The position numbers and the translations under genes are program-made. A model generated the notes under the pieces. That model did no database searches, had not been told where the DNA came from, and saw only the letters and a program-made list of their open reading frames with translations. Below are positions 1 through 17,606 of a stretch of 20,000 bases of DNA, piece after piece. The stretch is from IMG/VR virus record IMGVR_UViG_3300025769_000092; one strand, written 5' to 3'. Positions within the stretch are counted from its first letter, which is position 1. Every line of letters begins with the position of its first letter. The DNA comes from an uncultured virus (IMG/VR IMGVR_UViG_3300025769_000092). Taxonomy: Duplodnaviria > Heunggongvirae > Uroviricota > Caudoviricetes.

Positions 1-1
1 A

Positions 2-388
2 GAGGGCTTGGATGACGGTGGTATGACTGATAGAAGCCTAATGGAGAAGTTTATAGCCTTTTGTAACGATTACCTAGAGCTTAAGACTCCTTGTAAAATA
101 AAATTGACTAGTGATAGGGATTCTAATGGTATTAGAACAACAGCTTATTATAGTATATTAGATAAGATTATTTGTGTATATGTAAAAGATAGAGCAATAA
201 TGGATATAATGCGTTCTGTTGCACATGAGTTAGTACATCATCATCAAAACGAAAGAGGTGATTTACATGGTAGACCAGAAGAGGGGGCCGATGGGTCACC
301 GATAGAGAATGAGGCAAATGCTAAGGCTGGTGAAATTATCAGAATTTTCGGTAAACAAAACCCAGAAATTTATAGAAATAATAAATAG
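2..388 (+). CDS. C-terminal part of a zincin-like (HExxH) metallopeptidase-domain phage protein, probably truncated by the window edge
   Basis: The frame is open from base 2 (GAG GGC TTG...). It has the motif RSVAHELVHH followed by a downstream E (IENEANAKAG), the HExxH...E arrangement, and ends TAG TAG. Confidence 0.7.
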   Translation, partial: EGLDDGGMTDRSLMEKFIAFCNDYLELKTPCKIKLTSDRDSNGIRTTAYYSILDKIICVYVKDRAIMDIMRSVAHELVHHHQNERGDLHGRPEEGADGSPIENEANAKAGEIIRIFGKQNPEIYRNNK

Positions 389-399
389 TAGATAATTTA

Positions 400-429
400 T
401 TTGTCCCATGTCCCGAAACACGGGACAAA
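400..429. other. Intergenic GC-rich hairpin with two alternative left arms
   Basis: TGTCCCG (409-415) pairs with CGGGACA (421-427); TTTGTCCC (400-407) can alternatively pair with GGGACAAA (422-429). There is no clean U-tract. Confidence 0.45.
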
Positions 430-494
430 GTTTAATCATTAATTTAATAAAAAGTTTCAGAATTCAATGTTATTATTAAATTGGAGGATGAGAT

Positions 495-713
495 ATGTTA
501 CCAGAGGATATAAAAAAATTGGTGATTAAATATAAAAATGAAATCACAATTCTTAATAAAAATATAGTTGACTTACAAGAAAAATGTAGTCATGATAATT
601 ATGAAATAAAAAATATTAGCACTAGCACAGGTGTATTTAGAAATGTGTGTACAACATGTGAAAAAATTATTGGGTATCCAACTGATAAAGAATTTAGAGA
701 AGCTGGTTATTAA
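495..713 (+). CDS. Small hypothetical protein, putative zinc-binding (CxH...CxxC)
   Basis: 72-aa ORF with CSH and CTTC motifs; GGAGG at 483-487 upstream of the start. Confidence 0.65.
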   Translation: MLPEDIKKLVIKYKNEITILNKNIVDLQEKCSHDNYEIKNISTSTGVFRNVCTTCEKIIGYPTDKEFREAGY

Positions 714-1009
714 TTAGTTATTTTTAATCTTGGTGCTCTGAAACGATGTTCATCACCTATATAAATTATTTTACTAATAAAAAATGATGTATCTTTTAAT
801 CGTCTTTTAATGTTGCTATCATAATAGGAATGTATTTTTATACTATCTTCGTAGTTTAATTTTTTAGGTACTATAAAATTATTACAACCCCAATGATTAT
901 CATCTTCAGATGTTTTATAACAGTATGAATACCTCTCATCTCTAAAGATTTCTTTACCGCAACCCATTAAAATAATAATAATACATGTTATTAATAATAA
1001 TTTACTCAT
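710..1009 (-). CDS. Putative lipoprotein
   Basis: MSK, then a hydrophobic stretch, then the lipobox-like LMGC. The start codon is supplied by the junction repeat. Confidence 0.7.
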   Translation of the reverse strand: MSKLLLITCIIIILMGCGKEIFRDERYSYCYKTSEDDNHWGCNNFIVPKKLNYEDSIKIHSYYDSNIKRRLKDTSFFISKIIYIGDEHRFRAPRLKITN

Positions 1010-1024
1010 CTTTGTTTTTGTTTA
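1002..1024 (-). repeat. Gene-junction repeat copy 1 (TAAACAAAAACAAAGATGAGTAA, 22/23 to consensus)
   Basis: Contains the TAA of 1022..1267 and the ATG of 710..1009. Confidence 0.9.
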
Positions 1025-1267
1025 GTCTAAACCTAAATTATGGTCTCCTAATATGTCTCTTATTTTCTCTCTTAGTTTTTCAGCAACTTCATATTCTGCT
1101 TCACTTGCTTGCTCGTTGTGTTTCAACAACGATACATTATACTTTGTAGTTGACCGTAATAATTGGTCTAAGTCCCACATAGCAAGTTTCCACTTGTAAC
1201 CATCTAATGCTGTTCTAGCATCTTCTGCTTCTTCTACTCCATCAAATTCTAAAATAACTTTACTCAT
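1022..1267 (-). CDS. Hypothetical phage protein
   Basis: 81-aa ORF bounded by junction repeats on both sides. Confidence 0.8.
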   Translation of the reverse strand: MSKVILEFDGVEEAEDARTALDGYKWKLAMWDLDQLLRSTTKYNVSLLKHNEQASEAEYEVAEKLREKIRDILGDHNLGLD

Positions 1268-1282
1268 CTTTCATTTGGTTTA
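1260..1282 (-). repeat. Gene-junction repeat copy 2 (TAAACCAAATGAAAGATGAGTAA, 21/23)
   Basis: Contains the TAA of 1280..1501 and the ATG of 1022..1267. Confidence 0.85.
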
Positions 1283-1501
1283 ATAATAATCCTCTTCATC
1301 CCAATAAACTTCCTTACCTAATTCTTCGGCAACGGCTCGAGACACACTATTTATACTAGCACCTAAAAACTCTTTCCATTCAGTATTAGGATTGGCGATA
1401 CAACTATTACCACCACTTGTTAGTTTAATTCTATCTACATCCCATTTGACACCGAAGTAATCAAGAAATTCCTTACATCTATTTAATTCTTTTTCTGTCA
1501 T
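1280..1501 (-). CDS. Hypothetical phage protein
   Basis: 73-aa ORF in a co-oriented cluster. A TATATTTG (-7-like element) lies just upstream at 1506-1513. Confidence 0.75.
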   Translation of the reverse strand: MTEKELNRCKEFLDYFGVKWDVDRIKLTSGGNSCIANPNTEWKEFLGASINSVSRAVAEELGKEVYWDEEDYY

Positions 1502-1526
1502 ATTTCAAATATAATAAAAATTATTT

Positions 1527-1916
1527 TTAATCCCACCATCCTCTAATATAAAATTCAATTAATTTCCATAGAAGTTTATGGGCTCTTTCTTGTTTTTTCA
1601 TCGCTTCTTCAAACTCAATCTTTCCCTTATGCCAGTCATTCATGTATTCTTCATTGTATACTTTATCCATCAGTCTAACAACCATTCTAATCTTTTGGGC
1701 ATCAATATGTGAGTTAGCACCATAGGCTTCATGGGATTCCATAAAATCCGCTTGTTTCAATAACTGGTGTTTGAATACTTCTAATGAGTAATAGTAATCA
1801 AAATCAAATTGTTTCCATATTATAGGAATCCAACCAATAAGATTTTTAATCTGTCTCCATTTTCTACGAGGCCAGTAATTAATGTTTCTCCAAACGTCTT
1901 TTAATTTATTTTTCAT
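1527..1916 (-). CDS. Hypothetical Trp-rich phage protein (probable start MKNKLKD at 1916)
   Basis: The track ORF is 1527..1934. The ATG at 1914-1916 overlaps the end of the upstream gene (ATGAAAAATAA). The protein ends GWWD. Confidence 0.75.
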   Translation of the reverse strand: MKNKLKDVWRNINYWPRRKWRQIKNLIGWIPIIWKQFDFDYYYSLEVFKHQLLKQADFMESHEAYGANSHIDAQKIRMVVRLMDKVYNEEYMNDWHKGKIEFEEAMKKQERAHKLLWKLIEFYIRGWWD

Positions 1917-2157
1917 TTTGTTCCAAATAAGCACGTAATTTTTTTAAATCCTCTTTTTTAAATATTGTACTATCCCAATCACCAAATCTGCTTTTATAAC
2001 CAAAAGCATACTTTAACCCTCGCCATAGTCTTTTAAAAAAGTTTCTGTGAGTTGTCAAGTGTGGTTCGCAATATAAGTTACCATCTTCTTCATCATACCA
2101 AAAAATTACTTGGTGTTCAAGCGAGTGGCATTCGCATATCATTACTATTCTATCCAT
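1906..2157 (-). CDS. Hypothetical phage protein (CxCH motif)
   Basis: 83-aa ORF with an N-terminal ICECHSLEH motif. Confidence 0.75.
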   Translation of the reverse strand: MDRIVMICECHSLEHQVIFWYDEEDGNLYCEPHLTTHRNFFKRLWRGLKYAFGYKSRFGDWDSTIFKKEDLKKLRAYLEQNEK

Positions 2158-2201
2158 AATTCCGTAATTTTTAAAGTCGTTTTAATATTGGTCCATTTAA
2201 G

Positions 2202-2224
2202 TTACTCATCTTTGTTTTGGTTTA
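2202..2224 (-). repeat. Gene-junction repeat copy 3 (perfect consensus)
   Basis: The plus strand reads ttactcatctttgttttggttta. Confidence 0.95.
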
Positions 2225-2313
2225 TCGAAGAATATCCAATTAGCTTTTCCATTCCTCCCTATTTTGGAAATTTTACTAGATATTTCTTTTAGTTTATCTT
2301 TTAACTTACTCAT
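2206..2313 (-). CDS. 35-aa basic micro-protein MSKLKDKLKEISSKISKIGRNGKANWIFFDKPKQR
   Basis: Manually translated. It starts at the ATG of repeat copy 4 and stops at the TGA of repeat copy 3. Confidence 0.55.
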   Translation of the reverse strand: MSKLKDKLKEISSKISKIGRNGKANWIFFDKPKQR

Positions 2314-2328
2314 CTTTGTTTTGGTTTT
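2306..2328 (-). repeat. Gene-junction repeat copy 4 (AAAACCAAAACAAAGATGAGTAA, 22/23)
   Basis: The plus strand reads ttactcatctttgttttggtttt. Confidence 0.95.
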
Positions 2329-2420
2329 CCTCCCCATATTTTTATTGTCATATCTCTTGCGGGTGATGGCTTTAATCTATTCCACCTATCTATCCAATGT
2401 TGCCTTTCTTCTTTACTCAT
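2310..2420 (-). CDS. 36-aa micro-protein MSKEERQHWIDRWNRLKPSPARDMTIKIWGGKPKQR
   Basis: Manually translated. It starts at the ATG of repeat copy 5 and stops at the TGA of repeat copy 4. Confidence 0.6.
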   Translation of the reverse strand: MSKEERQHWIDRWNRLKPSPARDMTIKIWGGKPKQR

Positions 2421-2435
2421 CTTTGTTTTGGTTTA
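2413..2435 (-). repeat. Gene-junction repeat copy 5 (perfect consensus)
   Basis: Encodes the C-terminal NQNKDE* of 2413..2793 and the ATG of 2310..2420. Confidence 0.95.
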
Positions 2436-2793
2436 ATAAATTCATAAAATCTATATCTTTATCTAATATCTCAATAGGTACAGGACTCTTTTCTATAATA
2501 TTCTCTAATACATCTTGTACATATGGTCTAAACCAATACATACCATCTTTTAATCCATAACCGCTTTTACGACATTGATAACAACTACCACTATGGCCTT
2601 CAAAATAGTAATAATCTTCATCTTCTTCAATACCAACGACACCCGAATTCATTTTCCATCTGTCACCATCTAGATATCCACCTCTCCATCCACCGAATAC
2701 TCGGTAATAGGTTTCATTACCTTCAATTTTAAGGATAACCCAACTTTCTGGTTTTTCTGTTATATTTCTGATATCAAATATTTTATCTTCCAT
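2413..2793 (-). CDS. Conserved-looking hypothetical phage protein
   Basis: 126 aa with a WVILKI...YRVFGGWRGGYLDGDRWKMNSG motif of a type I recall from phage hypotheticals. It ends in the repeat-encoded NQNKDE. Confidence 0.8.
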   Translation of the reverse strand: MEDKIFDIRNITEKPESWVILKIEGNETYYRVFGGWRGGYLDGDRWKMNSGVVGIEEDEDYYYFEGHSGSCYQCRKSGYGLKDGMYWFRPYVQDVLENIIEKSPVPIEILDKDIDFMNLLNQNKDE

Positions 2794-2796
2794 AAC

Positions 2797-3000
2797 TTAT
2801 TTATAATTTGTAAGAAACTCTTTGGGTATGTCTTTACTTAATCCTTTCATAATATTCTCTTTGATATATTTAATGTCTTCCTCGTCTTTAATATCCTTAA
2901 TTATTTCTCTAAACTTAATTAAGAAATCAACATTCTCACTTTCACCATAGACATTAACTATTCTATCATGTAACCATTGTAAGTGTTCTGAATTTGTCAT
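2797..3000 (-). CDS. Hypothetical phage protein
   Basis: 67-aa ORF tightly packed in the cluster. Confidence 0.7.
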   Translation of the reverse strand: MTNSEHLQWLHDRIVNVYGESENVDFLIKFREIIKDIKDEEDIKYIKENIMKGLSKDIPKEFLTNYK

Positions 3001-3012
3001 ATTTTTTATATT

Positions 3013-3243
3013 TTAATATCCGTAATTCACTTTAATTGCCTTTGACTGATGTTTTCCTTCCTCACCAAAATGTTCCATCACCTCAATAGCAATATCTGTA
3101 TCCAATTGACATATTACTGCCGAAAAGTAACTTAACATAGATGATTTATCATCAGTTAATGTCATACCAAATTCAAACATAAATTCTTCTATCTCTGAAA
3201 TAATAGTATTTACTTTTCCTTGTCTTTCTCTATCTAATTTCAT
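3013..3243 (-). CDS. Hypothetical phage protein
   Basis: 76-aa ORF whose ATG lies in repeat copy 6. Confidence 0.75.
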   Translation of the reverse strand: MKLDRERQGKVNTIISEIEEFMFEFGMTLTDDKSSMLSYFSAVICQLDTDIAIEVMEHFGEEGKHQSKAIKVNYGY

Positions 3244-3258
3244 CTTTGTTTTGTTTGA
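3236..3258 (-). repeat. Gene-junction repeat copy 6 (TCAAACAAAACAAAGATGAAATT; 14-nt core intact)
   Basis: The core CAAAACAAAGATGA is identical; it lies between 3262..3534 and 3013..3243. Confidence 0.8.
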
Positions 3259-3261
3259 TAT

Positions 3262-3534
3262 TTAGTATTTTTTTAAATCTTTAAACGCCTCAATATCAAA
3301 AAACTCACTCTCTATTTTACCCATAACATCCTTTAAGAATCTACCTTGAGTTTCGTAATCCATATTGGTTATGGCAAATTTAATAGACATAGATAATGAT
3401 GAGGTTAATAAACCAACCAGTTCTAAATCAGACATTCTATTATCTTCTTGGAAGTATTTAAAGTTAAGGTATATCCTACCATCATCTTTAACATTACCTT
3501 CTAAAATGATTCTTTTTAATTCTTCTTTACTCAT
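3262..3534 (-). CDS. Hypothetical phage protein (start at 3534 MSKEE, or at 3543)
   Basis: The track ORF is 3262..3543. The second ATG lies in the half-motif AAGATGAGTAA (3527-3537). Confidence 0.7.
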   Translation of the reverse strand: MSKEELKRIILEGNVKDDGRIYLNFKYFQEDNRMSDLELVGLLTSSLSMSIKFAITNMDYETQGRFLKDVMGKIESEFFDIEAFKDLKKY

Positions 3535-3546
3535 CTTCTCCATTTC

Positions 3547-3684
3547 TTAGTTTGTAAAGTCTCGTTTAATTTGTTTTCTCTTTAGTTCACTTACACCCGA
3601 TGGCATGACAGTAGGCTTGTAATATTTTGTTCCGCATGAAGTCATTGCTATAAGGAAAAGCATCGATATTAATTTTTCACTCAT
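3547..3684 (-). CDS. 45-aa putative small lipoprotein MSEKLISMLFLIAMTSCGTKYYKPTVMPSGVSELKRKQIKRDFTN
   Basis: Manually translated. It fills the gap exactly, has a hydrophobic stretch plus lipobox-like MTSC, and takes its ATG from repeat copy 7. Confidence 0.65.
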   Translation of the reverse strand: MSEKLISMLFLIAMTSCGTKYYKPTVMPSGVSELKRKQIKRDFTN

Positions 3685-3699
3685 CTTTGTTTTGTTTTA
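3677..3699 (-). repeat. Gene-junction repeat copy 7 (TAAAACAAAACAAAGATGAGTGA, 21/23)
   Basis: Contains the TAA of 3697..4065 and the ATG of 3547..3684. Confidence 0.9.
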
Positions 3700-4065
3700 T
3701 ATCCATCCTTTTTTTCTAACCTGTTGTAAAAGATTAGTTAAGTTTATAAATTTAGAGTCACCTATTTCTTTTCTCAGATTTGTTACTTCAATATTTTCAT
3801 TATCTTCTAACACATCAATTAAGAAATCTTTATTATCCCAGTAATCACTATTGTTTTTATTGGCATGGCCTTCTGTATAGTAGGTTACATTTTGAGTACC
3901 TTCCCATATTTCATCATCATCATTTAGTAAAACACTAAACTCAAAATAACCACAATCACTAATAGAAGAGTAATAAAATGTTACTGAATTTTCATTTACT
4001 TTAGTCTCTTCTACTGGTACTAAATTGTACTCTACCCCATCTAATATTATTGTCTTATTATTCAT
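3697..4065 (-). CDS. Hypothetical acidic phage protein
   Basis: 122-aa ORF with N-terminal KTIILDGVEYNLVP. Confidence 0.8.
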   Translation of the reverse strand: MNNKTIILDGVEYNLVPVEETKVNENSVTFYYSSISDCGYFEFSVLLNDDDEIWEGTQNVTYYTEGHANKNNSDYWDNKDFLIDVLEDNENIEVTNLRKEIGDSKFINLTNLLQQVRKKGWI

Positions 4066-4091
4066 ATTTTTAATCTATTAATTCATCTATG

Positions 4092-4152
4092 TTTTATACC
4101 CCTTCGGGTATGTTTCAATTAATTTAACTCATTTTATACCTTAACGGGTATA
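4092..4152. repeat. Tandem pair of palindromic elements TTTTATACC-N5-GGGTAT, 40 bp apart
   Basis: ttttataccccttcgggtat (4092-4111) and ttttataccttaacgggtat (4132-4151), in an intergenic gap. Confidence 0.75.
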
Positions 4153-4189
4153 TGGGATAGAATTCTTATTAAATGCTGTTTGATAATTC

Positions 4190-4372
4190 TTATTTGTTGT
4201 ATTGTTTTAATTCTTTCTCCATATCTAACATGATAAATGATTGTTTTTTAATCATAGCCCTATACTTGAATATGTAAGAGGTTTGAAATGCTAACATGAT
4301 TGCAAACATTGCTATATAGGCATACCAAATCAAACTCTTTGGTGGGTCTAACCTTTTTAAATTAGTTTTCAT
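4190..4372 (-). CDS. Small single-TM membrane protein
   Basis: 60 aa with hydrophobic LIWYAYIAMFAIMLAF; ATG lies in repeat copy 8. Confidence 0.7.
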   Translation of the reverse strand: MKTNLKRLDPPKSLIWYAYIAMFAIMLAFQTSYIFKYRAMIKKQSFIMLDMEKELKQYNK

Positions 4373-4387
4373 CTTTGTTTTGTTTTA
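4365..4387 (-). repeat. Gene-junction repeat copy 8 (TAAAACAAAACAAAGATGAAAAC)
   Basis: Supplies the TGA of 4369..4494 and the ATG of 4190..4372. Confidence 0.85.
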
Positions 4388-4494
4388 TATATTGTCCACA
4401 TTTTCTTTTCACACTCTTGAGAACAAATTGTACCTTTTCCTTTGAATTTGGTCCCACACATATCACATATATTGTATTCTATTTTATTTTTCAT
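4369..4494 (-). CDS. 41-aa zinc-finger micro-protein MKNKIEYNICDMCGTKFKGKGTICSQECEKKMWTIYKTKQR
   Basis: Manually translated. It has CxxC-x10-CSxxC and ends in the repeat-encoded KTKQR*. Confidence 0.7.
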   Translation of the reverse strand: MKNKIEYNICDMCGTKFKGKGTICSQECEKKMWTIYKTKQR

Positions 4495-4499
4495 ATATT

Positions 4500-5738
4500 T
4501 TAAAAAGGTAAATCTTCAATCCAGTTTCCATTAATATCTCTACTATGACCAAGTTTTGTAGCTGGTTCAACATCTATACTTAAACCAATCTCTTTATTAA
4601 AGTTATTAACTTTTTCAATAACCATATTTAATAATGATTCTGGTGGGTTTGAGTTTGAGTGACCTCTTAATTGCCCCACCCTTAGAAATTTACTATGCTT
4701 ATTACTATTGGAAGAAATACTAAATGAAGATTCTGTGTTTAATTCTAGGGTGTAACCATTTACTCTAAAAATACCACAATTACCGTTTTCTACCTTGTTA
4801 ATATAAGTACCAACACAATGATTTTGTTTTTTACCCTCATAAGCCATTTCTTTAGTACTTTGTATGATTTCTATTTTAGAAAATCTTGAGAACTTTAAAT
4901 ATATGTCAGAAATTTTCATTTTTCTATCAGCACCAATAAATATAATATCGTTAATCACTTTAACAAAGTTATCGTGTTCTTGTCTTAATCTTTTTGATGA
5001 CCATGAACAATTAACTTTTTCATCAAGTATTTTTGCCATTTTAAGTGTATCCCTAAATATATTTAATTCACCTCTATCTGAGGTCCACTCTTTTTTTAAT
5101 GACTCAACATTTTTAATATATTTTAAATAGTATTTAAAGTAGTATTTAACCCAGTGGTCATTTGAAGTGTGTAATATTAAGGCCACTGGTTTTGGTACTT
5201 TATATTCAAACTGTAAAGCCTTTTTAAGATTATATAGTTTGTTTTTTATAATTGTATTAAACGCTATATTTTGTAAAACATTGTGTTCTCTAATAAACCT
5301 AATCCATGTAAATTTATTTTGTAGTTCATTTAATATAAGTTCAACCTGTATAGATTCTTTCAAACCTATTTGGTATTGTGGGAATGCACTAGATAAAAAG
5401 TTCATAGTTAGTGGTCTAACGTTTTTTGATTTACCCATGTTATCTATTATCCAGAATTTACCTTCTTTATAAGTTATAGTTAATAGTCTTTTTTCTGAAC
5501 TATAAATTCTATTTGTTATGCTTATACCATATTTTTTCCTAAAATAAACTATAGAGAACTCTCCATTTTTTTCTTTAAATAAAACTAACCTAAAGTTTTC
5601 ATAACCAACTGAGTCATTCATATAGACTACTCTAGCCAGGTATTTATCTTTATTATATAATTTAAATAAATGGTCAACTTTTGGAGAGGTTGCTTCATGT
5701 AACACATTATACTCTGTTTTATCATTCTTATTACTCAT
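4500..5738 (-). CDS. PcfJ-like domain protein
   Basis: 412 aa with the PcfJ-type signature EGKKQNHCVGTY...QLRGHSN near the C-terminus; ends EDLPF. Confidence 0.75.
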   Translation of the reverse strand: MSNKNDKTEYNVLHEATSPKVDHLFKLYNKDKYLARVVYMNDSVGYENFRLVLFKEKNGEFSIVYFRKKYGISITNRIYSSEKRLLTITYKEGKFWIIDNMGKSKNVRPLTMNFLSSAFPQYQIGLKESIQVELILNELQNKFTWIRFIREHNVLQNIAFNTIIKNKLYNLKKALQFEYKVPKPVALILHTSNDHWVKYYFKYYLKYIKNVESLKKEWTSDRGELNIFRDTLKMAKILDEKVNCSWSSKRLRQEHDNFVKVINDIIFIGADRKMKISDIYLKFSRFSKIEIIQSTKEMAYEGKKQNHCVGTYINKVENGNCGIFRVNGYTLELNTESSFSISSNSNKHSKFLRVGQLRGHSNSNPPESLLNMVIEKVNNFNKEIGLSIDVEPATKLGHSRDINGNWIEDLPF

Positions 5739-5765
5739 ATATTAAAATTTTTATTTGGTTGTGTA

Positions 5766-5797
5766 CAAATATAGAATAAAATTTGTAAAAAAACAAA
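5766..5797 (-). promoter_or_regulatory. Bacteroidota-type primary-sigma promoter for the accessory cluster
   Basis: The minus strand reads TTTG-N20-TATATTTG, matching the -33 TTTG / -7 TAnnTTTG consensus. Confidence 0.75.
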
Positions 5798-5810
5798 TTA
5801 TTTTTAATTT

Positions 5811-6062
5811 TTAATATATAGACCTTATCTCTATTAGACCTTTATCGTAATCTTCTTTCTTTTTTTTTAGGAAAGCTCTAGCGACAGTTCTAATATGTCC
5901 ATCCGTATAAGGTGGTGTTAATATACCGTCAGCTAGTCTAGCAATTTGGTTTATTGCACTAGTTCTACTTCTTTCCCTACCCTTTATATACTGGTATACT
6001 GCTGGATGGTCGTCTGGTATTGAAACTTTAATAAATTCTTTAATTATTTCTGAATCACTCAT
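5811..6062 (-). CDS. Hypothetical protein
   Basis: 83-aa ORF with normal composition. Confidence 0.7.
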   Translation of the reverse strand: MSDSEIIKEFIKVSIPDDHPAVYQYIKGRERSRTSAINQIARLADGILTPPYTDGHIRTVARAFLKKKKEDYDKGLIEIRSIY

Positions 6063-6135
6063 TGATTTTATTTAAAAAAAGTGTATATTGGTTATAATTA
6101 TAAATAATAGATAAAAAAGTAAAAATTAAAATCTT

Positions 6136-6456
6136 ATGAATTTAGAAATAACAGACAGCGAAATTGACAACCTTTTATCTAAAGGTGGTATAACAGTATT
6201 AGATTTTTGGGCACCATGGTGTGGGCCTTGTAAGAGTTATGGACCTATAATTGAAGGGTTCGCTAAAGATAATGAAAGTAGGTCTGATTTACACATCAGA
6301 AAAATTAATGTAGATGAGAATCCAGTAATGGCTCAGAAACATGGTATTAGAAGTATACCTACTACAATTATTTTTAAAGATGGGCAACTAATAACAAAAG
6401 TTCCTGGTGTGATACAAAAAAATAAATTAGATGAATTTGTGGGTAATTTATCTTAA
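6136..6456 (+). CDS. trxA: Thioredoxin
   Basis: DFWAPWCGPCK active site and SIPT cis-Pro loop; 106 aa. Confidence 0.95.
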   Translation: MNLEITDSEIDNLLSKGGITVLDFWAPWCGPCKSYGPIIEGFAKDNESRSDLHIRKINVDENPVMAQKHGIRSIPTTIIFKDGQLITKVPGVIQKNKLDEFVGNLS

Positions 6457-6485
6457 TTGAGGATATTTATAATAAAGAGTAAATT

Positions 6486-6806
6486 GTGGACATAAGAGAT
6501 AAAATAAGAAAAGCTCTCACAGAAGTATATGGTAATTTTGAGACTTACCTTGAGTCTGAGTATGAGAAATATATCTCTGATAATCTAACGAATGCTTCTA
6601 TGTCCAACAAGAGAAAGTGGATAACCTACAATCAAGTTATATTAGAATTGAAGCATAACATTAAAAATATGCTTAAGGTTAAAGAATTACAATACAAGCT
6701 TACTGAAGATGCGGAACCTAGAGAAGTGTGTATCGAGGTGATAGAAACTTTGGAAATTAAAACTCCAGAACTCGAAAGACTTTATTATAAAATAAGAAAT
6801 TTTTAA
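6486..6806 (+). CDS. Hypothetical protein, paralog of 6923..7258
   Basis: GTG start; motif WITYNQVILEL...ELQYKLTEDAEP. Confidence 0.75.
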   Translation: MDIRDKIRKALTEVYGNFETYLESEYEKYISDNLTNASMSNKRKWITYNQVILELKHNIKNMLKVKELQYKLTEDAEPREVCIEVIETLEIKTPELERLYYKIRNF

Positions 6807-6922
6807 AAAAAAATGGCCATACAAAACGTATGGTCATATCTCTGAAAAAAGTTAGTGTTAACCCAGTAGATTGGTTTGTTTTATGATATTTATTATAAAT
6901 AACAATTACTAAATTAATACTA

Positions 6923-7258
6923 ATGGATGACTTTGATTTCACTATAAAATCTGGGTCTGGTAAGTACTCAAATCTAGATAAGGAGTATGGTAATTTCCTT
7001 AAAACAATAACACAAAAATTAGACGGAGAAAAATTATATAGGTGGGAAAGCTACAACCTAATAATTGAAGAGTTAATTAAGGAAAATAAATTATCTACAT
7101 TTGAAGAGGTAAAATACAGATTGACAGATGGGGAAGACCCAAATAACGTAATGTTAGATATTATAACAAGAGAGAATAATTCGAATGGATTAATGTGGTT
7201 GATGAAAAAACGTATTGAAGAATATAAGAATGAAGATTTCTTTGACCAATTTTATTAA
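6923..7258 (+). CDS. Hypothetical protein, paralog of 6486..6806
   Basis: Motif WESYNLIIEEL...EVKYRLTDGEDP. Confidence 0.8.
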   Translation: MDDFDFTIKSGSGKYSNLDKEYGNFLKTITQKLDGEKLYRWESYNLIIEELIKENKLSTFEEVKYRLTDGEDPNNVMLDIITRENNSNGLMWLMKKRIEEYKNEDFFDQFY

Positions 7259-7261
7259 CTA

Positions 7262-7295
7262 AAAAAGAGAGGTGGCTAATGCTACCTTTTTTTTT
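7262..7295 (+). terminator. Rho-independent terminator
   Basis: AGGTGGC-TAAT-GCTACCT stem followed by a T-run. Confidence 0.75.
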
Positions 7296-7296
7296 A

Positions 7297-7327
7297 TTGA
7301 TTATTTTAAATATTTGTAGTATATTTG
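7297..7327 (+). promoter_or_regulatory. Bacteroidota-type promoter
   Basis: TTG (7297-7299)-N20-TATATTTG (7320-7327), just upstream of the ATG at 7340. Confidence 0.7.
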
Positions 7328-7339
7328 TAAAAAAGTTTT

Positions 7340-8764
7340 ATGAGTAAATTAGATAACACAAAAAGACTTGAGTACCTAGTAAAAAGGTACGATATTTTTG
7401 AGACTGATACTAAAAGTCTTGATGATAAGGTTAGTGAATTTACACGTAAAGGAAGTCTGGTAAAAGATATAATTGGTTCTAGTGGTAATATAATTGGGTT
7501 AGAGTCATTAATAGAGAATATTAAAGTTGATGGTGCTGGTAATAAGATAACTAAAATTAAAAAAACTATTAGTGTTTCTTTTGATGTTTTTAGTGAAATG
7601 GTTAAGTCTGACCCAACTAAGAATAAACAACACACTCAATGGATGTTAGACACATTTATTAGATTATTAAAAGATTCTAACTACTCAGATGCTGTTAGGT
7701 TCGTTGAAGAAGACCTACCATTGGCTAAAGAATATTTAGAAATATTTGAACAGAACAAAAAGAAAAGGAAATTTAAAGAATTATGTAATTCTTCATATGT
7801 TTTAAAAGGGACTGTAAATGACCCAACAAATATAAACCAATATAAATCACTATCTCAACTATATGATGCAGTTGACCCATTTATTGAAAGGGACTCTTCA
7901 GATATGGAAAAGCAAATGCAAAGGTTTGTAGATGCTGGTCAAGCGTTAATACCAGTTAGGGATAGAAAGTTTACAGTGTTTATTCCTTTAACTAGAGACG
8001 CTAGTGTTTTATTTGATAAATTTGCTAGTTGGTGTACTGCAACCCCTAATAACGGTATGTTTAATAATTACACTAGTAATTTAAAACCTAATGGTAAAAA
8101 ATCAAATATTTATATAGTGATAGACCACAGGTTTTACAAAGGTGATTTAGATGATAACTATTTATATCAAATTCATTTTGAAAGTGGGCAAGTTAGGAAT
8201 AGAAAACAAAATGGTAGGGGTAATTTCTTTGAGGATGTTATTTTAAAAAGTGATGGAGTCTCAAAATTCTTACATGAAGAATTAACTACCATGGCTAAAC
8301 AATTAAAAAAAATTGAGAATAATAAGTATATTGATTTCTTAGTTAGATTTGGTTGGACTGAGGCGCTATTTGATATAATGGATGATTATACACCAATAAT
8401 TAAATTTAAAGATAGAGAGGTACCAAAAATACCAGATATTTCTAAATTTAAGGAATTACATACATTGATAATTGCAAACGGTAAATTGCATGAATTACAT
8501 CCATCAATAGGTAAATTAAAAAATATTAGAGAGATTATTTTACCAAATAATAATCTAAAATCGTTACCAAAAGAAATTGGTAATCTTAATAATTTATTAT
8601 TTATAAACTTACTGGGAAATAAGATTAAAGATATTCCAGATGAAATTAAGTATTTAGATGAAACTAATGGTGGTTCATTATATAGAATAGCTTGTAATAG
8701 AAACGAAATAGGAGAAGAAAATTATAAAAAATTAAGAACACTACTGCCATCAGTTAAGATGTAA
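7340..8764 (+). CDS. Leucine-rich-repeat-containing protein (phage-type N-terminal domain plus C-terminal LRRs)
   Basis: C-terminal LxxLxLxxNxLxxLPxxIGxL repeats (e.g. IREIILPNNNLKSLPKEIGNL, LLFINLLGNKIKDIPDEI). The N-terminal part has DPTKNKQHTQW and SWCTA motifs. Confidence 0.8.
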   Translation: MSKLDNTKRLEYLVKRYDIFETDTKSLDDKVSEFTRKGSLVKDIIGSSGNIIGLESLIENIKVDGAGNKITKIKKTISVSFDVFSEMVKSDPTKNKQHTQWMLDTFIRLLKDSNYSDAVRFVEEDLPLAKEYLEIFEQNKKKRKFKELCNSSYVLKGTVNDPTNINQYKSLSQLYDAVDPFIERDSSDMEKQMQRFVDAGQALIPVRDRKFTVFIPLTRDASVLFDKFASWCTATPNNGMFNNYTSNLKPNGKKSNIYIVIDHRFYKGDLDDNYLYQIHFESGQVRNRKQNGRGNFFEDVILKSDGVSKFLHEELTTMAKQLKKIENNKYIDFLVRFGWTEALFDIMDDYTPIIKFKDREVPKIPDISKFKELHTLIIANGKLHELHPSIGKLKNIREIILPNNNLKSLPKEIGNLNNLLFINLLGNKIKDIPDEIKYLDETNGGSLYRIACNRNEIGEENYKKLRTLLPSVKM

Positions 8765-8792
8765 TAGCGTTAACACTTAATAATAATTTTAT

Positions 8793-8823
8793 AAGAGCTC
8801 TCGATTGGGGGCTTTTGTTTTTT
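8793..8823 (+). terminator. Probable Rho-independent terminator
   Basis: AAGAGCTCTC-GATT-GGGGGCTTTT stem (with G-U pairs) followed by a T-rich tail. Confidence 0.6.
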
Positions 8824-8835
8824 AAAGTATAATGT

Positions 8836-9384
8836 ATGTATAATAATAAAGACATAACATTTCAAGAAATGAAATGGAAAAGACTATCTAATGGTACAAT
8901 CAAAGAACCAATATTAACTTATTTAGAGAGAGTATTTAATGAAGAAATTAATAAAGGGTATACACTTAAGGTATCGATAGGTACTGACTCTCAAAGAGTT
9001 AGTAAAGGGTATAAGTTCGCAACAGTTGTAGTAATAACAACTGAAGAAGATTTAGGTGGTAACACTATTGTTGGTAGGGGCGGTATTGTTATTGGTGCTA
9101 ATTATTTTTCTCAAAGATATAAGAATAACAAAAGTGGTGTTAAGGAAAGGATGTTATTTGAAGTTGCTAAATCAATTGAAGTTGCCTACAATACATCACC
9201 ACTATTAGATAAATATAATATCCCTTTAGAAATTCATGCTGATATAAACCCAGACATTAAATGGGAGTCTAATAAAGCGTTACATGAGGCTGTTGGTTAT
9301 ATTTTAGGTATGGGTTATGATTTCAAGGTTAAACCAGACGCATGGGCAGCATCTAAAGGTGCTGATAGAGCAACTAGGACTTGA
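8836..9384 (+). CDS. RNase H-like YkuK (DUF458) family protein
   Basis: IGTDSQ, ERMLFEVAKSIEVA, EIHADIN and KPDAWAASKGAD motifs. Confidence 0.85.
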   Translation: MYNNKDITFQEMKWKRLSNGTIKEPILTYLERVFNEEINKGYTLKVSIGTDSQRVSKGYKFATVVVITTEEDLGGNTIVGRGGIVIGANYFSQRYKNNKSGVKERMLFEVAKSIEVAYNTSPLLDKYNIPLEIHADINPDIKWESNKALHEAVGYILGMGYDFKVKPDAWAASKGADRATRT

Positions 9385-9420
9385 CACTTTTATATTTTTT
9401 ATTATATTTATTTAAAAGAG

Positions 9421-9573
9421 ATGCTTATGTACGAATTGAGAACTAAAGATGGGGAAACTTTAAATAAAAAGTCAGCTGAGAGTATGGAAGATGCAATTGA
9501 ATTATTCTCTAAATACAAGATGATATCATCTAAATCTTTATTGGATATATTTGATGTTGTATATGTTAGCTAA
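9421..9573 (+). CDS. 50-aa hypothetical protein (missed by the ORF track; alternative start 9427)
   Basis: Manual translation MLMYELRTKDGETLNKKSAESMEDAIELFSKYKMISSKSLLDIFDVVYVS. It fills the gap and is preceded by ATATTTAT. Confidence 0.65.
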   Translation: MLMYELRTKDGETLNKKSAESMEDAIELFSKYKMISSKSLLDIFDVVYVS

Positions 9574-9661
9574 AAAAAAAATAATTGATTTTTGACTTTT
9601 TATAGATTACCCACATATTTATAATTAGACTAATAAAATTTTAAAAAAATTTCTAGAAAAT

Positions 9662-9862
9662 ATGTCAAATACTACACAAAAAACTGTTAAGATTACCGAG
9701 AACGAATTAGTTGAATTAATCGACAATATCGTAACTGAAACCGTTGCTGAAAAGAAAAAAGTATGGTTAGCTGAACAAGAATCTAAAGAAGAAAATCTAT
9801 TAGAATCAAAAATAGCTGACTTAGAAGCAAAGGTTAAAGCCCTTACGGAAGGTAAAAAGTAA
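9662..9862 (+). CDS. Small acidic coiled-coil protein, possibly head-associated
   Basis: 66 aa with KITENELVELIDNIVTE and a heptad-like C-terminus. Confidence 0.75.
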   Translation: MSNTTQKTVKITENELVELIDNIVTETVAEKKKVWLAEQESKEENLLESKIADLEAKVKALTEGKK

Positions 9863-9881
9863 TTTAAATTACAGAATATTT

Positions 9882-9923
9882 AGGCTGTTGGAATGATTTG
9901 TAAAATCACTCCACAGCTTTTTT
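9882..9923 (+). terminator. Long-stem terminator
   Basis: GCTGTTGGAATGATTT-GTA-AAATCACTCCACAGC imperfect stem followed by TTTTTT. Confidence 0.65.
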
Positions 9924-9959
9924 ATGTCCTAATTTTTAATTTTACTAAAATAAATAAAT

Positions 9960-9985
9960 AAAAAAAGCGGAATCAATTCCGCTTT
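9960..9985 (-). terminator. Terminator downstream of clpC
   Basis: Perfect AAAGCGGAAT/ATTCCGCTTT inverted repeat. The plus-strand A-run gives a U-tract on the minus strand. Confidence 0.8.
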
Positions 9986-10006
9986 ATTTATAATATCATT
10001 AATTTA

Positions 10007-12553
10007 TTATGATAAGATTATTTTTTTAGTTTTCTTATCGTAAGATATTTTAATGGTCGCTCCTAACTTATATTCATCGTTAAGGACCGCATCAGTTACT
10101 GGGTCTTCAATATGTCTTTGTATTGCTCTGTTAAGAGGTCTAGCACCATATGCTTCGTCATAACCTTGTTCTGATACATATTCTATCGCTGATTTATTAA
10201 CTTTAATTTTAAAACCAATCTCTTCAATCCTTTTATTAAGTTTATTCAATTCATTATGTATAATAATGTTGATAGCATCCTTTTTTAGACTGTTAAAAAC
10301 TATTGTTTCATCAATTCTATTAAGAAATTCTGGTTTGAATTTTTTCTTAAGCGCTTTCTCGATGATAGCTCTAGCTTTTTCTTCTTCATTAACTATTGCA
10401 GCATCAGTTTTGAATCCCATATCTTTACCAAAACTATTTAGTTCTGTTACACCTACATTTGAAGTTAGTATAATTAAAGTGTTTTTAAAATTAACTTTTC
10501 TACCAAGACCATCAGTAAGTGTACCTTCATCTAAAAGTTGTAACAATAGATTGAATACGTCTGGATGCGCTTTTTCTATTTCATCAAATAACACAACGCT
10601 ATAAGGTTTTCTCCTAACTTTTTCCGTTAATTGACCACCTTCTTCGTACCCTACATACCCTGGTGGTGGACCAATTAATCTAGAAACACTATGTTTTTCC
10701 ATGTATTCAGACATATCCATTCTAACCATAGCCTCTGTATCACCAAATATGTGTTCAGCCAATAATTTTGATAGGTATGTTTTACCAACACCTGTTGGTC
10801 CTAAGAAAATAAATGAACCAATAGGTTTGTCTTGGTCTTTTATTCCTAATCTATTACGTTTTATTGACCTAGTTACTTTAAGTACTGCATCGTCTTGACC
10901 TATAACCTTACCCATCAAGTCTTTATCCATACTCATTAACTTTTTATTTTCTTGAGAAGAAATCTTATTGACTGGAATACCAGTCATCATAGAAACTACT
11001 TCAGACACTAAATCAACATCAACAATAGTTCTTTTTTTGTCAAGTGATTCCATCCACTCAGTTTTAGCCACTTCTAACTCTTCGTTAACTTTTCTTTCAG
11101 AGTCTCTAAGTTTTGCAGCTTCTTCGTATCTCTGTTGTTTAACTACATCATGTTTTTTCTTATTAATACTTTCTTTTTTATTTTCTAATTTTTTGATATT
11201 TTCTGGTGCTTCTTGATTTACATTAGTTGTTGCCCCAGCTTCATCTAATATATCAATAGCTTTATCTGGCATGGCTCTATCAGAAATATATCTATTAGAC
11301 ATCTTAACTATTTCTTCAATTGCATCTTCAGTATAAGACACTTTGTGATGATTTTCGTATTTCTCTTTAATATTATTTAATATTTCTACAGTTTCGTCTG
11401 TGGTTGGTTCATCCACTAAAACTTGTTGGAATCTTCTGGTTAATGCACCATCCTTCTCAATATTTTCTCTAAATTCGTCTAAAGTTGTTGCACCTATTAC
11501 TTGTATTTCTCCTCTTGCTAAAGCTGGTTTGAAGATATTTGCAGCATCCATACCACCAGTAGCATTACCAGCACCAACAATTGTGTGTAGTTCATCTATA
11601 AAAAGTATTACATCTGAATTATCTTTAAGCTCATCTAATATAGCTTTCATTCTTTCTTCAAATTGTCCTCTATATTTGGTTCCAGCCACTATTGATGATA
11701 AATCAAGTGAATATATTCTTTTATCTAAAATAGTTCTAGGTGCCTTTCCTTGTCTAATAAGCATAGCTAAACCTTCCACTATAGCGGTTTTACCAACTCC
11801 TGGTTCACCTATTAAAACTGGGTTATTCTTTTTTCTTCTAGATAAAATCTGGGAAACTCTTTTAATTTCTTTAGTTCTACCAACTACTGGGTCTAGTAAA
11901 TCACTTTCAGCAGATTTTGATATGTCTCTACAAAAGTTATCTAGGACAGGTGTTTTACTCCCAGACCTTTTTTTCTTTTCTTGTTTTTTACTAGTGCTTC
12001 CACCGCCCATTGTGAATTCTTCACCATCCTCATCACTAACTGAGTTATTTATATCATCTAAATGTTTTCTTAGTTCATCTAATTTATCAAACATTTTGTC
12101 ATCATCAGTATTCATGTCCATAATTTTATCTTTAAAAATATTATACGTTATTTTATATTGTTTTAATAATTTAACTAGTTCCCATTTTGGGTTATTTAAT
12201 ATTGCCAACATGACATGTGCGGTGTCAATCATATGGTCATTAAATTTATTAGATTCTTTTTCCACACTCTTTAGTATGGCTTGTGTTTCGTCACTAAATG
12301 GTAGTCTAACTCTTCTCTTGGTTTGTGCCACGAAATTTAATTGAGTGTCTCTTAGTAACTCACCAACTTTATCATAAACTTCATTTAAATCAATTTTTAA
12401 TCGATTCATAATAACTACCGCACGGTTATCACCATGAGATATAATTGATAATAATAAGTGTTCTGGTCTAACTGATTTATCGTCAAAACTCTTAGCCTCT
12501 TCTTGGGATTTATTTATTACCTTTTTTAATTTTGGTACTATTTCTTTATTCAT
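10007..12553 (-). CDS. clpC: ATP-dependent Clp protease ATP-binding subunit (ClpC-type Hsp100 AAA+)
   Basis: Clp N-terminal repeats, two Walker A motifs (GEPGVGKT, GPTGVGKT), Walker B motifs LFIDE and LFDEIE, GTKYRG and GYVG pore loops, a short UVR-type middle domain (QQRYEEAAKLRD) and an MGF ClpP-docking-like loop. Confidence 0.93.
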   Translation of the reverse strand: MNKEIVPKLKKVINKSQEEAKSFDDKSVRPEHLLLSIISHGDNRAVVIMNRLKIDLNEVYDKVGELLRDTQLNFVAQTKRRVRLPFSDETQAILKSVEKESNKFNDHMIDTAHVMLAILNNPKWELVKLLKQYKITYNIFKDKIMDMNTDDDKMFDKLDELRKHLDDINNSVSDEDGEEFTMGGGSTSKKQEKKKRSGSKTPVLDNFCRDISKSAESDLLDPVVGRTKEIKRVSQILSRRKKNNPVLIGEPGVGKTAIVEGLAMLIRQGKAPRTILDKRIYSLDLSSIVAGTKYRGQFEERMKAILDELKDNSDVILFIDELHTIVGAGNATGGMDAANIFKPALARGEIQVIGATTLDEFRENIEKDGALTRRFQQVLVDEPTTDETVEILNNIKEKYENHHKVSYTEDAIEEIVKMSNRYISDRAMPDKAIDILDEAGATTNVNQEAPENIKKLENKKESINKKKHDVVKQQRYEEAAKLRDSERKVNEELEVAKTEWMESLDKKRTIVDVDLVSEVVSMMTGIPVNKISSQENKKLMSMDKDLMGKVIGQDDAVLKVTRSIKRNRLGIKDQDKPIGSFIFLGPTGVGKTYLSKLLAEHIFGDTEAMVRMDMSEYMEKHSVSRLIGPPPGYVGYEEGGQLTEKVRRKPYSVVLFDEIEKAHPDVFNLLLQLLDEGTLTDGLGRKVNFKNTLIILTSNVGVTELNSFGKDMGFKTDAAIVNEEEKARAIIEKALKKKFKPEFLNRIDETIVFNSLKKDAINIIIHNELNKLNKRIEEIGFKIKVNKSAIEYVSEQGYDEAYGARPLNRAIQRHIEDPVTDAVLNDEYKLGATIKISYDKKTKKIILS

Positions 12554-12571
12554 AGAAAATTTTTATTTGTA

Positions 12572-12636
12572 CAAATATATAACATTATTAATTAAAAATC
12601 AACACTTGATTTTATTATAAATATAAAGTATATTTG
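12572..12636. promoter_or_regulatory. Back-to-back divergent Bacteroidota-type promoters
   Basis: Minus strand: TTG (12602-12600)-N20-TATATTTG (12579-12572). Plus strand: TTG (12606-12608)-N20-TATATTTG (12629-12636). Confidence 0.75.
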
Positions 12637-12654
12637 TACAAAAATATTTTAATT

Positions 12655-12879
12655 ATGCAAGGAGCTCCTAAATTTGGAAAAGTTGAGTTGTTATTAAAAG
12701 ATAAAGATAACGGATTATCTAGAAATAAAGTTGAATATGATGATTGTGGTATGATTATCACTGGTGATTATATAATCATAGTGTTAGATGATAAAGTTGA
12801 TATTGAAACTACTAATACATCCACTGGTAAGATTTATCACATGAGTGAAATTGATTCTTATAAAACACACGCATTATAA
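12655..12879 (+). CDS. Hypothetical protein (probable start MQGAPKF)
   Basis: The track's TTG start at 12634 lies inside the promoter element; the first ATG is at 12655. Confidence 0.7.
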   Translation: MQGAPKFGKVELLLKDKDNGLSRNKVEYDDCGMIITGDYIIIVLDDKVDIETTNTSTGKIYHMSEIDSYKTHAL

Positions 12880-12900
12880 TAAATAAATAAAAAAAAGAAT

Positions 12901-13344
12901 ATGATTTTAGAGAGAGTAGAAAAAAATGGTTCGGTTGAAGCAATTTATGAATCATCAAACATTGTAGCGTCTAGTTACAATAAAAATAAAAAAGATTTAA
13001 ATATCACATTTAAGCATGGTGGCAACTATACCTATCAAAATGTTTCTGAAACAGACTACATGAGATTTGAAACCGCTGAAAGTCAAGGAAAGATACTTAA
13101 TAGCAACATAAAAAAGTATGCATTTCTTAAGCACGAAAATAAAGACGTTGATTTAGTTATTAAAAAAATTAAAGAACTTAAATCAAGTGAGCTTTCAGCA
13201 ATGGAGGTTGGGTTAGTCAATGTGATGAAAGAGGCTATATCATTATATGAAAGTAGTGGTATGTTAGGTTCTGACATGATTGATAATATCAATAAGGTTT
13301 TAAATGTTTATAATAAAACAGCTAGTCAACCAAAAGCAGAATAA
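12901..13344 (+). CDS. KTSC-domain protein
   Basis: ESSNIVASSY...LNITFKHGGNYTYQNV...AESQGKILNSNIK matches the KTSC pattern, with a helical C-terminal extension. Confidence 0.85.
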   Translation: MILERVEKNGSVEAIYESSNIVASSYNKNKKDLNITFKHGGNYTYQNVSETDYMRFETAESQGKILNSNIKKYAFLKHENKDVDLVIKKIKELKSSELSAMEVGLVNVMKEAISLYESSGMLGSDMIDNINKVLNVYNKTASQPKAE

Positions 13345-13346
13345 AT

Positions 13347-14399: not shown

Positions 14400-14422
14400 T
14401 TAAAAACTAGTAATAATAATTT

Positions 14423-14451
14423 AAAAAGCATCTTAAATGGGTGCTTTTTTT
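14423..14451 (+). terminator. Rho-independent terminator after thyA
   Basis: AAAAGCATC...GGTGCTTTT stem followed by a T-run. Confidence 0.7.
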
Positions 14452-14487
14452 GTTTATAGACATATTTATAATAAAACATTAATACTT

Positions 14488-14748: not shown

Positions 14749-14763
14749 TAAAAAATATTTAAT

Positions 14764-15018: not shown

Positions 15019-15063
15019 TAACTTTACTAAAAATGATAATATTTATTAATAAATCAAATTAAG

Positions 15064-15858: not shown

Positions 15859-15884
15859 AGAGTAATGATTCATCTCTAAATGAG

Positions 15885-17594: not shown

Positions 17595-17606
17595 AATATA
17601 ATTAAT

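Follow-up and report, generated by a model that had tools for sequence, protein, structure and literature searches.

A probable translation start/stop joint that coincides with cassette breakpoints in arrays of tiny genes of uncultured AT-rich phages

A comparative analysis of a 20,000-nucleotide (nt) stretch of an uncultured virus of the Caudoviricetes (IMG/VR record IMGVR_UViG_3300025769_000092; the whole stretch, coordinates 1-20000, is referred to as the window) has revealed a short repeated element that is located at the starts of the genes of an array of very small genes, contains stop codons in the three reading frames, and coincides with breakpoints of gene gain, loss, replacement and reordering among related contigs. 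The element is probably a standard intercistronic joint for the termination and initiation of translation that doubles as a stretch of short homology at which cassettes can be exchanged; no integrase was found in the five element-bearing contigs searched. Its home is in arrays of tiny accessory genes of an uncultured AT-rich phage lineage, many of whose members are jumbo phages, and recombination at the element would be ongoing there. No prior description of the element was found in the literature searched, in which subscription journals were not covered.

Results

Anatomy of the element

The element was defined as the minus-strand 23-mer TAAACCAAAACAAAGATGAGTAA, with the 14-nt core CAAAACAAAGATGA. 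Six matches to the 23-mer with up to 3 mismatches, all of them on the minus strand and two of them perfect, were found in the window, and none in 200 dinucleotide shuffles of it. The core added two exact matches (3240-3253 and 4369-4382) and one with 2 mismatches (4083-4096) and, with the half copy at 3527-3537, the total is eight copies and two partial copies between 1002 and 4387 (Table 1). Outside the array, the only match to the core was located on the plus strand at 19776-19789, with 2 mismatches, in line with the 0.62 matches expected by chance. An initial annotation, made from the window alone, had listed eight clear copies, a half copy and a degenerate one, in one orientation and at gene boundaries, with unrelated genes between them and no copy in the rest of the window. 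This description was recovered with one correction, which is that the copy at 2202-2224 starts an open reading frame (ORF) of only 12 codons that looks like a dead or truncated cassette. No similar pair was detected when 17 minus-strand proteins, including those of the array, were compared with each other (best E value 0.072); none of the 15 array ORFs had a Pfam match, and a single one had a PHROG match.

Counting the A of the ATG as position 0, the element reads T (position -15) followed by AAACCAAAACAAAG, then ATG and then AGTAA, and the consensus of the joint is TTAAACCAAAACAAAG-ATG-AGTAAAGAAGAA, about 23-31 nt in length. Conservation runs from the TTAA at the left edge to AGTAAAGAAGAA at the right edge, and the flanks beyond these limits are unrelated. 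The element is A/C-rich on one strand, lacks self-complementarity and is not palindromic, and neither promoter hexamers nor the Bacteroidia boxes TTTG and TANNTTTG are present within it, in agreement with the annotation, which had described it as neither a promoter-stem-loop nor a palindrome.

Three stop codons, one per frame, are built into the element: TAA at -15, TGA at +1 and TAA at +5. In every full copy of the window the ATG of the element is the start codon of the downstream ORF, and the upstream ORF terminates within the element, in a frame that differs between copies. The TAA at -15 is used at the copies beginning at 1002, 1260 and 3677, the TGA over the ATG at those beginning at 2202, 2306 and 4365, and the TAA behind ATGAG at 2413. 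Since the upstream genes end in different frames, the conserved feature is the nucleic acid and not any protein. A search with a 16-mer, allowing up to 2 mismatches, yielded 339 copies, and the contigs that carry them, among which the window is counted, number at least 115. The upstream ORF ends at a built-in stop in 232 of the 339 copies (64 at -15, 60 at +1 and 108 at +5), and no long upstream ORF is present in 29 further copies. The TAA at -15 is retained in 48/60 of the copies using the +1 stop and in 84/108 of those using the +5 stop and, being kept where it is unused, it indicates that the three-frame stop belongs to the element itself. A variant longer by three bases, AACCAAAACAAAGAAGATG, was also observed (n=25), in which the ATG stays in phase with the stop at -15.

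Features of translation initiation

Among the exact 13-mer cores that were not used for the selection of loci, an ATG was present at offset 0 or +3 in 127/133. An ORF of at least 23 codons is opened by 326 of the 339 copies, and the other 13 open 12 codons or fewer. Shine-Dalgarno (SD) motifs were found at no gene start of the window. Ribosome profiling and reporter assays in Flavobacterium johnsoniae, as described in the part of PMC6847099 dealing with initiation, have revealed that an A at positions 0, -3, -6, -12 and -13 favours initiation, and the element has an A at all of them. In genes of the same contigs located far from the arrays, A peaks at -14 to -10, -6 and -3, and G is not enriched. 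The predicted unpaired probability between -20 and -1 is 0.66 for the element and 0.57 for other starts. The sequence traits of SD-free Bacteroidia starts (A positions, no SD and weak predicted structure) are present in the element, and these sequence features suggest that it has a role in translation. A host that translates without SD pairing, in the manner of the Bacteroidia, is most likely, and it may itself be of the Bacteroidia type. In the 114 copies with 1-2 mismatches the changes are concentrated at C-11 (39%), C-10 (20%), C-5 (18%) and G-1 (16%), with the A positions retained at 94-100%.

Spread and specificity

Most of the contigs with copies come from uncultured AT-rich phages, with sizes of up to 380 kb, and the G+C content of the loci ranges from 24% to 42%. 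The exact 20-mer is present in at least 132 stretches of IMG/VR and in only 5 stretches of 185,579 prokaryote species genomes, all of them contigs of metagenome-assembled genomes (MAGs). These five contigs (L133-L137) were binned to Microbacteriaceae, Promethearchaeia, Campylobacteraceae (two contigs) and Aenigmatarchaeota, and their element-led arrays of mini-genes are probably mis-binned phage DNA.

Five related contigs of 125-380 kb, scanned whole, contain 26, 22, 12, 11 and 10 copies, with 80/81 on one strand per genome. The copies cluster in one to three arrays per contig, each array spanning a few kb; the reversed pattern, used as a control, gave no match in the same contigs. The motif is confined to these arrays, rather than preceding core genes throughout the genome as the pure start signal considered in the annotation would do. 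A ClpB-like protein 54-56% identical to that of the window is encoded in three of the five contigs and part of a 569-amino acid (aa) protein is shared by four of them, and the five contigs belong to one broad lineage. In total, 49 arrays with at least three copies were found, with a median spacing between copies of 214 nt.

The 642-kb uncultured phage LR756502.1, with a ClpB-like protein 58.6% identical, gave 2 two-mismatch matches versus 1 in the control, which is not above chance. In the cultured phage collection, a 41-nt query around the element revealed no carrier among the 60 of 99 matches listed, and the sole match of the whole window was the thyA stretch of Flavobacterium phage immuto. 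The element is absent from the record nearest to the window (G001), which overlaps it at 17375-20000 only. Several arrays are at or near contig ends (105-6159 in G002, 57-1107 in G005, and 374679-380239 of 380343 in G003), and the near-identical contig L152 stops within the array, at window position 2880. This location could be due to assembly breaks produced by cassette variation in the population, or to proximity to the physical genome ends.

Two other explanations were considered. If the element were a promoter, recognised by a phage-specific RNA polymerase or sigma factor and producing a leaderless or very short-leader transcript for each mini-gene, it would also be expected in one direction in front of genes, and its length and strict conservation (from about -16 to about +6 relative to the ATG) resemble those of single-subunit RNA polymerase promoters. 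However, the median spacing and the upstream ORFs that end inside the element fit coupled cistrons on one transcript better than a separate promoter at each of hundreds of copies, and both the conserved three-frame stops and the in-phase longer variant point to translation; a promoter function is considered extremely improbable.

In the second explanation, a phage-encoded RNA-binding factor uses the element as its operator or cleavage site and switches all the array genes on or off together, much as early mRNAs of T4 are controlled by the RegA repressor and the RegB nuclease. Such a factor would explain the invariant non-A positions, and it fits both the identity of the 16-mer, including C-5, C-10, C-11 and G-1, across phages with the distant ClpB-like proteins indicated above and the restriction of the element to arrays, with its near absence from prokaryote genomes. 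The same possibility was raised for the start-associated sequences (SAS) of Cluster K mycobacteriophages in the part of PMC3203893 devoted to them. But no candidate factor was found, the PcfJ-like protein of the window being present in only 2/5 element-bearing contigs, and the copies with 1-2 mismatches vary at exactly the C and G positions, unlike a strict operator. An operator, which is compatible with a function in translation or in recombination, is distinctly unlikely.

Breakpoints in close relatives

The metagenome contig L153 is 97.7% identical to the window over 13739-4369 and differs from it inside the array only, with 5/6 of the array breakpoints in element copies. At the copy 4365-4387 the alignments stop at 4369 and resume at 4392, and L153 has an additional cassette of 238 nt (82 aa) between two copies. 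Homology stops again at 4079, directly behind the degenerate copy 4083-4096, where L153 has 422 extra bases with two element-led cassettes. One of these is a 71% homologue of the ORF 3013-3243, begins at the element and occupies another array position; no element is located at the other end of the insertion (4069). The segment 3675-1025 of the window (2,651 nt) is missing from L153, and the flanking alignments overlap by 24 nt, which corresponds to one element. The ORF 3697-4065 is only 83.5% identical in L153, with flanks of 97-98% identity.

One cassette is shared with L137/L140 at 84% nucleotide identity, exactly from element to element (window 1001-1283), and its neighbours in L137 differ on both sides. 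In L135 the gene of the transmembrane (TM) protein is 91% identical and is followed by a near-intact copy and three more, making four extra cassettes where the window retains only a decayed remnant (4189-4210). In L154, whose PcfJ-like protein is 52% identical, the zinc-finger gene is followed by an RNase H-like gene, with neither element nor array. Gene order, set beforehand as a test of the annotation, varies among the relatives, and breakpoints of gain, loss and reordering are in the element. This result favours the annotation, as does the restriction of the motif to arrays.

Breakpoint statistics across contigs

When copies were compared between contigs, those pairs with homology in one flank or more consisted of 49 pairs sharing both flanks, 84 sharing only the downstream flank and 47 sharing only the upstream flank, and a mis-oriented control gave 0 of 46,056 pairs. 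Among the flank families present on at least two contigs, 26/51 downstream and 25/54 upstream families have at least two different partners. BLAST alignments coming from upstream mostly stop at +3 to +17, and those running downstream mostly begin at -17 to -14. Breaks were found at 341/426 element junctions (80%, 85 read through) and at 22/129 junctions outside arrays (17%, 107 read through). In 15 gaps between collinear alignments of contig pairs (high-scoring segment pairs of at least 85% identity), the element is within 25 nt of at least one end in 7, and one clean insertion/deletion (indel) of 1,821 nt shows a 26-nt alignment overlap at the element.

Several results weigh against a joint with both functions. 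The pairs of copies are not independent events. Junctions without the element, at up to 1.5 kb from one, also break often (129/224, 58%; 95 read through), and no element is within 25 nt of either end in 8/15 gaps. The strict two-box promoter pattern is present within 3 kb upstream of only 3/49 arrays. No copy was found in the cultured Flavobacterium phage immuto (160 kb). AT-biased mutation could be an alternative source of the pattern of mismatches. Finally, a generic A-rich start does not explain the identity of C-5, C-10, C-11 and G-1 across phages with ClpB-like proteins of 54-56% identity, and such C/G conservation suggests a specific reader or frequent homogenisation.

Some of these results would be expected if the element were a translation signal only, kept by selection, and the mosaic breaks were surviving recombinants broken at gene boundaries and not crossovers within the element. 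All the start and stop evidence applies to this explanation, as do the breaks at array junctions lacking the element and the gaps between near-identical contigs with no element nearby. Against it, element junctions break more than the other junctions of the same arrays (odds ratio of about 3), at discordant junctions homology reaches the element on one side and begins at its edge on the other, and at both the 2,651-nt and the 1,821-nt indel the flanking alignments overlap by one element, which is the signature of repeat exchange. A purely translational role is considered unlikely, and a start/stop joint that also serves as short homology is preferred.

The promoterless cassettes shuffled at a joint that the annotation had proposed are thus a comparative observation. 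A role of the element only or mainly as a recombination site is not supported, on account of its start codon, favoured A positions and three-frame stops, and the frequent breaks at other array junctions also count against that part of the proposal. If a dedicated system moved the cassettes by site-specific recombination, like integrons with attC/attI and their integrase, and the element were its attachment site, this would account for the same-direction, promoterless and unrelated cassettes downstream of a possible promoter and for the cassettes common to contigs from element to element. Nevertheless, the A/C-rich strand cannot form an attC-like hairpin, and only 1/81 copies is on the reverse strand. 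Tyrosine integrases (Pfam Phage_integrase, PF00589) were found in 0/5 jumbo contigs with the element, including one with a completeness rating of 100%, whereas 14/14 control genomes were positive, and no recombinase domain was detected in the window proteins with Pfam and PHROG, as anticipated in the annotation. The involvement of a dedicated recombinase is therefore unsupported, and a site of this type is very improbable. RecA-family matches were found only below the cut-off, in 3/5 contigs, and none of PcfJ, RecA-family and tyrosine integrase accompanies the arrays in all five contigs.

Gene content, promoter and features of the window

The G+C content of the window is 26-35%, and it encodes a ClpB-like ATPase, thymidylate synthase, thioredoxin, an RNase H-like protein and a PcfJ-like protein, together with unmatched ORFs, which is a large-phage gene set; no tRNA genes were found in the window. 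The ClpB/Hsp100-type ATPase (848 aa, two AAA domains; 10007-12553, minus strand) has uncultured phages of 634-642 kb among its closest matches in the phage collection, with 57-59% identity over residues 201-848. The PcfJ-like gene (window 4500-5738; L154 4621-5886) forms with a small CxxC zinc-finger gene a pair that is conserved even in the array-less distant relative, and the array starts directly behind the zinc-finger gene. No relatives of the PcfJ-like protein were found in viral contigs, and a metagenome scan gave 3 loci.

The annotation had placed a promoter at 5766-5797, upstream of the PcfJ-like gene. Such a promoter is plausible and fits the Bacteroidia consensus, whose -7 box TANNTTTG is quoted in PMC6847099, but the two-box pattern gave 1 match in the window versus 1.24 expected by chance. 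The pattern was dropped as evidence, being at chance level in the window and infrequent upstream of the arrays. The decamer TATATTTGTA, which contains the -7 box, has five exact copies in the window, four of them intergenic and ahead of the genes at 5738, 7340, 12553 and 12901, which are the leading genes of transcription units. A copy with 1 mismatch (1504-1513, minus strand) is located inside the array, a few bases before the ATG of the ORF 1280-1501.

The gap 4066-4189 is non-coding and contains on the minus strand a short TATACC-N6-GGTATA stem-loop and a short ATACCC-GAAG-GGGTAT one, neither of them followed by a run of T. Conservation of this gap amounts to 98% in L153 and to 75% in L135, in which hairpins of the TATACC...GGTATA type are found again, and it is also a mosaic boundary; termination, stabilisation or the binding of a factor are possible functions.

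Table 1. Coordinates of the element copies and related features in the window.
Feature	Position	Strand	Description
Array	710-4494	-	15 small ORFs of 35-130 aa and one 12-codon stub
Element copy	1002-1024	-	1 mismatch; TAA 1022-1024 ends the 81-aa ORF 1022-1267; right-hand breakpoint of the 2,651-nt block missing from L153
ATG of copy 1002-1024	1007-1009	-	Starts 99-aa lipoprotein-like ORF 710-1009
Element copy	1260-1282	-	2 mismatches; ends ORF 1280-1501, starts ORF 1022-1267
Element copy	2202-2224	-	Perfect; upstream 35-aa ORF has the C-terminus ...KPKQR, and its TGA overlaps the ATG
ORF led by copy 2202-2224	2170-2209	-	12 codons only
Element copy	2306-2328	-	1 mismatch; upstream 36-aa ORF ends ...KPKQR; starts 35-aa ORF 2206-2313
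Element copy	2413-2435	-	Perfect; starts 36-aa ORF 2310-2420
126-aa ORF upstream of copy 2413-2435		-	Open across the element in the third frame; C-terminus ...LNQNKDE, with the TAA behind ATGAG as its stop
Element copy	3236-3258	-	Core exact; starts 76-aa ORF 3013-3243
Half copy	3527-3537	-	Right half AAGATGAGTAA, then AGAAGAA; within the start region of ORF 3262-3543
Element copy	3677-3699	-	2 mismatches; ends ORF 3697-4065, starts 45-aa lipoprotein-like ORF 3547-3684; left-hand breakpoint of the 2,651-nt block missing from L153
Degenerate copy	4083-4096	-	2 core mismatches; non-coding DNA
Decayed remnant	4189-4210	-	3' end of the TM-protein gene 4190-4372
Element copy	4365-4387	-	Core exact; starts TM-protein ORF 4190-4372
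Zinc-finger ORF upstream of copy 4365-4387	4369-4494	-	Ends ...KTKQR at the overlapping TGA
PcfJ-like gene	4500-5738	-	Heads the operon
Promoter-like match	5766-5797	-	Bacteroidia -33/-7 consensus TTTG...TANNTTTG; precedes the PcfJ-like gene by about 25 nt
TATATTTGTA copies	5764-5773, 7320-7329, 12570-12579, 12629-12638, 18617-18626	-, +, -, +, +	Exact copies of the decamer

Discussion

Proposed mechanism and significance

According to the sequence and to the published determinants of initiation, an upstream gene in any frame would meet in the mRNA a stop at -15, +1 or +5. In a polycistronic mRNA the upstream ribosome would terminate within 15 nt of the next ATG, and an open A-rich leader would present this ATG and recruit or retain an SD-blind 30S subunit. 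As the same 20-30 nt are present at many junctions and in one direction, the element would also provide short homology for recombination, and in the DNA this identity in direct orientation may be a substrate for the general recombination of the phage or of the host. Exchange within a genome or between co-infecting phages would produce deletions, possibly circles, and re-insertion at any other copy. A comparable model was proposed for the promoter early stem-loop elements (PeSLs) of T4-type phages (PMC2839356). In this way, cassettes made of the element plus an ORF could be excised, inserted, replaced and reordered with their reading frames intact and, because a crossover in the joint leaves the upstream frame with its stop and the downstream gene with its start, all the products of the exchange would be expressible.

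A more speculative extension, which is possible although rather unlikely, is that the arrays do in SD-less phages what integrons do elsewhere, but with no integrase, and with a dedicated phage factor (an RNA-binding switch or a cassette-capture activity) that reads the element as a universal adaptor. If this were true, the three-frame stops and the ideal start would allow any captured ORF to be expressed wherever it is inserted, the letter-perfect conservation of the adaptor across phages with only about 55% identity in a shared protein would be due to its reading by the dedicated factor, and this factor would control or mobilise the whole accessory gene pool.

The element provides a sequence handle on the turnover of tiny accessory genes in large uncultured aquatic phages, and these genes are likely candidates for host takeover or anti-defence. 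Arrays of this kind can be retrieved from metagenomes with the exact 20-mer with almost no background and, as a practical matter, array-bearing phage contigs turn up in unrelated MAG bins. Regulatory repeats that double as recombination joints are an idea known from the promoter-terminator cassettes of T4-type phages, which is extended here to a probable translation signal, in a lineage that seems to dispense with SD pairing. The element is also a natural and highly selected start region for asking what SD-blind ribosomes recognise, with conserved C and G positions outside the published adenine rules.

Comparison with known systems

The element is a member of neither the PeSL nor the SAS family, and it is not an integron. 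Integrons gain, lose and reorder their cassettes, which are promoterless and unrelated small genes in the same direction, by way of a repeated joint (attC/attI, with the integrase IntI). The element arrays have in common with them the promoterless, unrelated and same-direction cassettes and the repeated joint, but the element has no imperfect inverted repeat that could form a hairpin, integrases were found in 0/5 jumbo contigs, and the joint is the start of the next gene.

The PeSLs of T4-type phages, as described in the parts of PMC2839356 and PMC4122927 concerning these repeats, are like the element in being short conserved regulatory repeats that separate small ORFs of no essential function, and large lytic phages have them in their hyperplastic regions. 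The breakpoints of indels and replacements between close relatives are in the repeats in both cases (here 5/6 in the comparison with L153, and 0.80 at element junctions versus 0.17 outside arrays), and both imply homologous recombination without a dedicated integrase. However, a PeSL consists of a sigma-70-type early promoter and a terminator stem-loop, neither of which is present in the element, and acts in transcription, whereas the element includes the start codon and would act in translation. Mini-circles have been shown physically for PeSLs, and exchange at the element is deduced from sequence comparison.

The SAS of Cluster K mycobacteriophages, within the account of them given in PMC3203893, resemble the element in that they are asymmetric, have one orientation and are located at the starts of unrelated non-structural genes, with the stop codon of the upstream gene inside the repeat in some SAS copies. 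They are also essentially absent from host genomes, as is the element from nearly all of the 185,579 species genomes tested. A SAS is a 13-bp sequence, GGGATAGGAGCCC, with an SD core and located 3-7 bp before the start, whereas the element, in which no SD is present, extends over the ATG into the first codons and carries the three-frame stops. The element is present on at least 115 contigs, and SAS in one phage cluster. A role of SAS in translation has been proposed and not proven, and mosaic breakpoints at SAS are not the focus of PMC3203893 in the part describing these sequences.

The SD-free initiation regions of Bacteroidia, as characterized in the part of PMC6847099 cited above, are similar to the element in the A at 0, -3, -6, -12 and -13, in the lack of an SD and in their low predicted structure. 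These regions are loose composition biases, whereas the element is a fixed word of 16-23 nt that is almost absent from prokaryote genomes.

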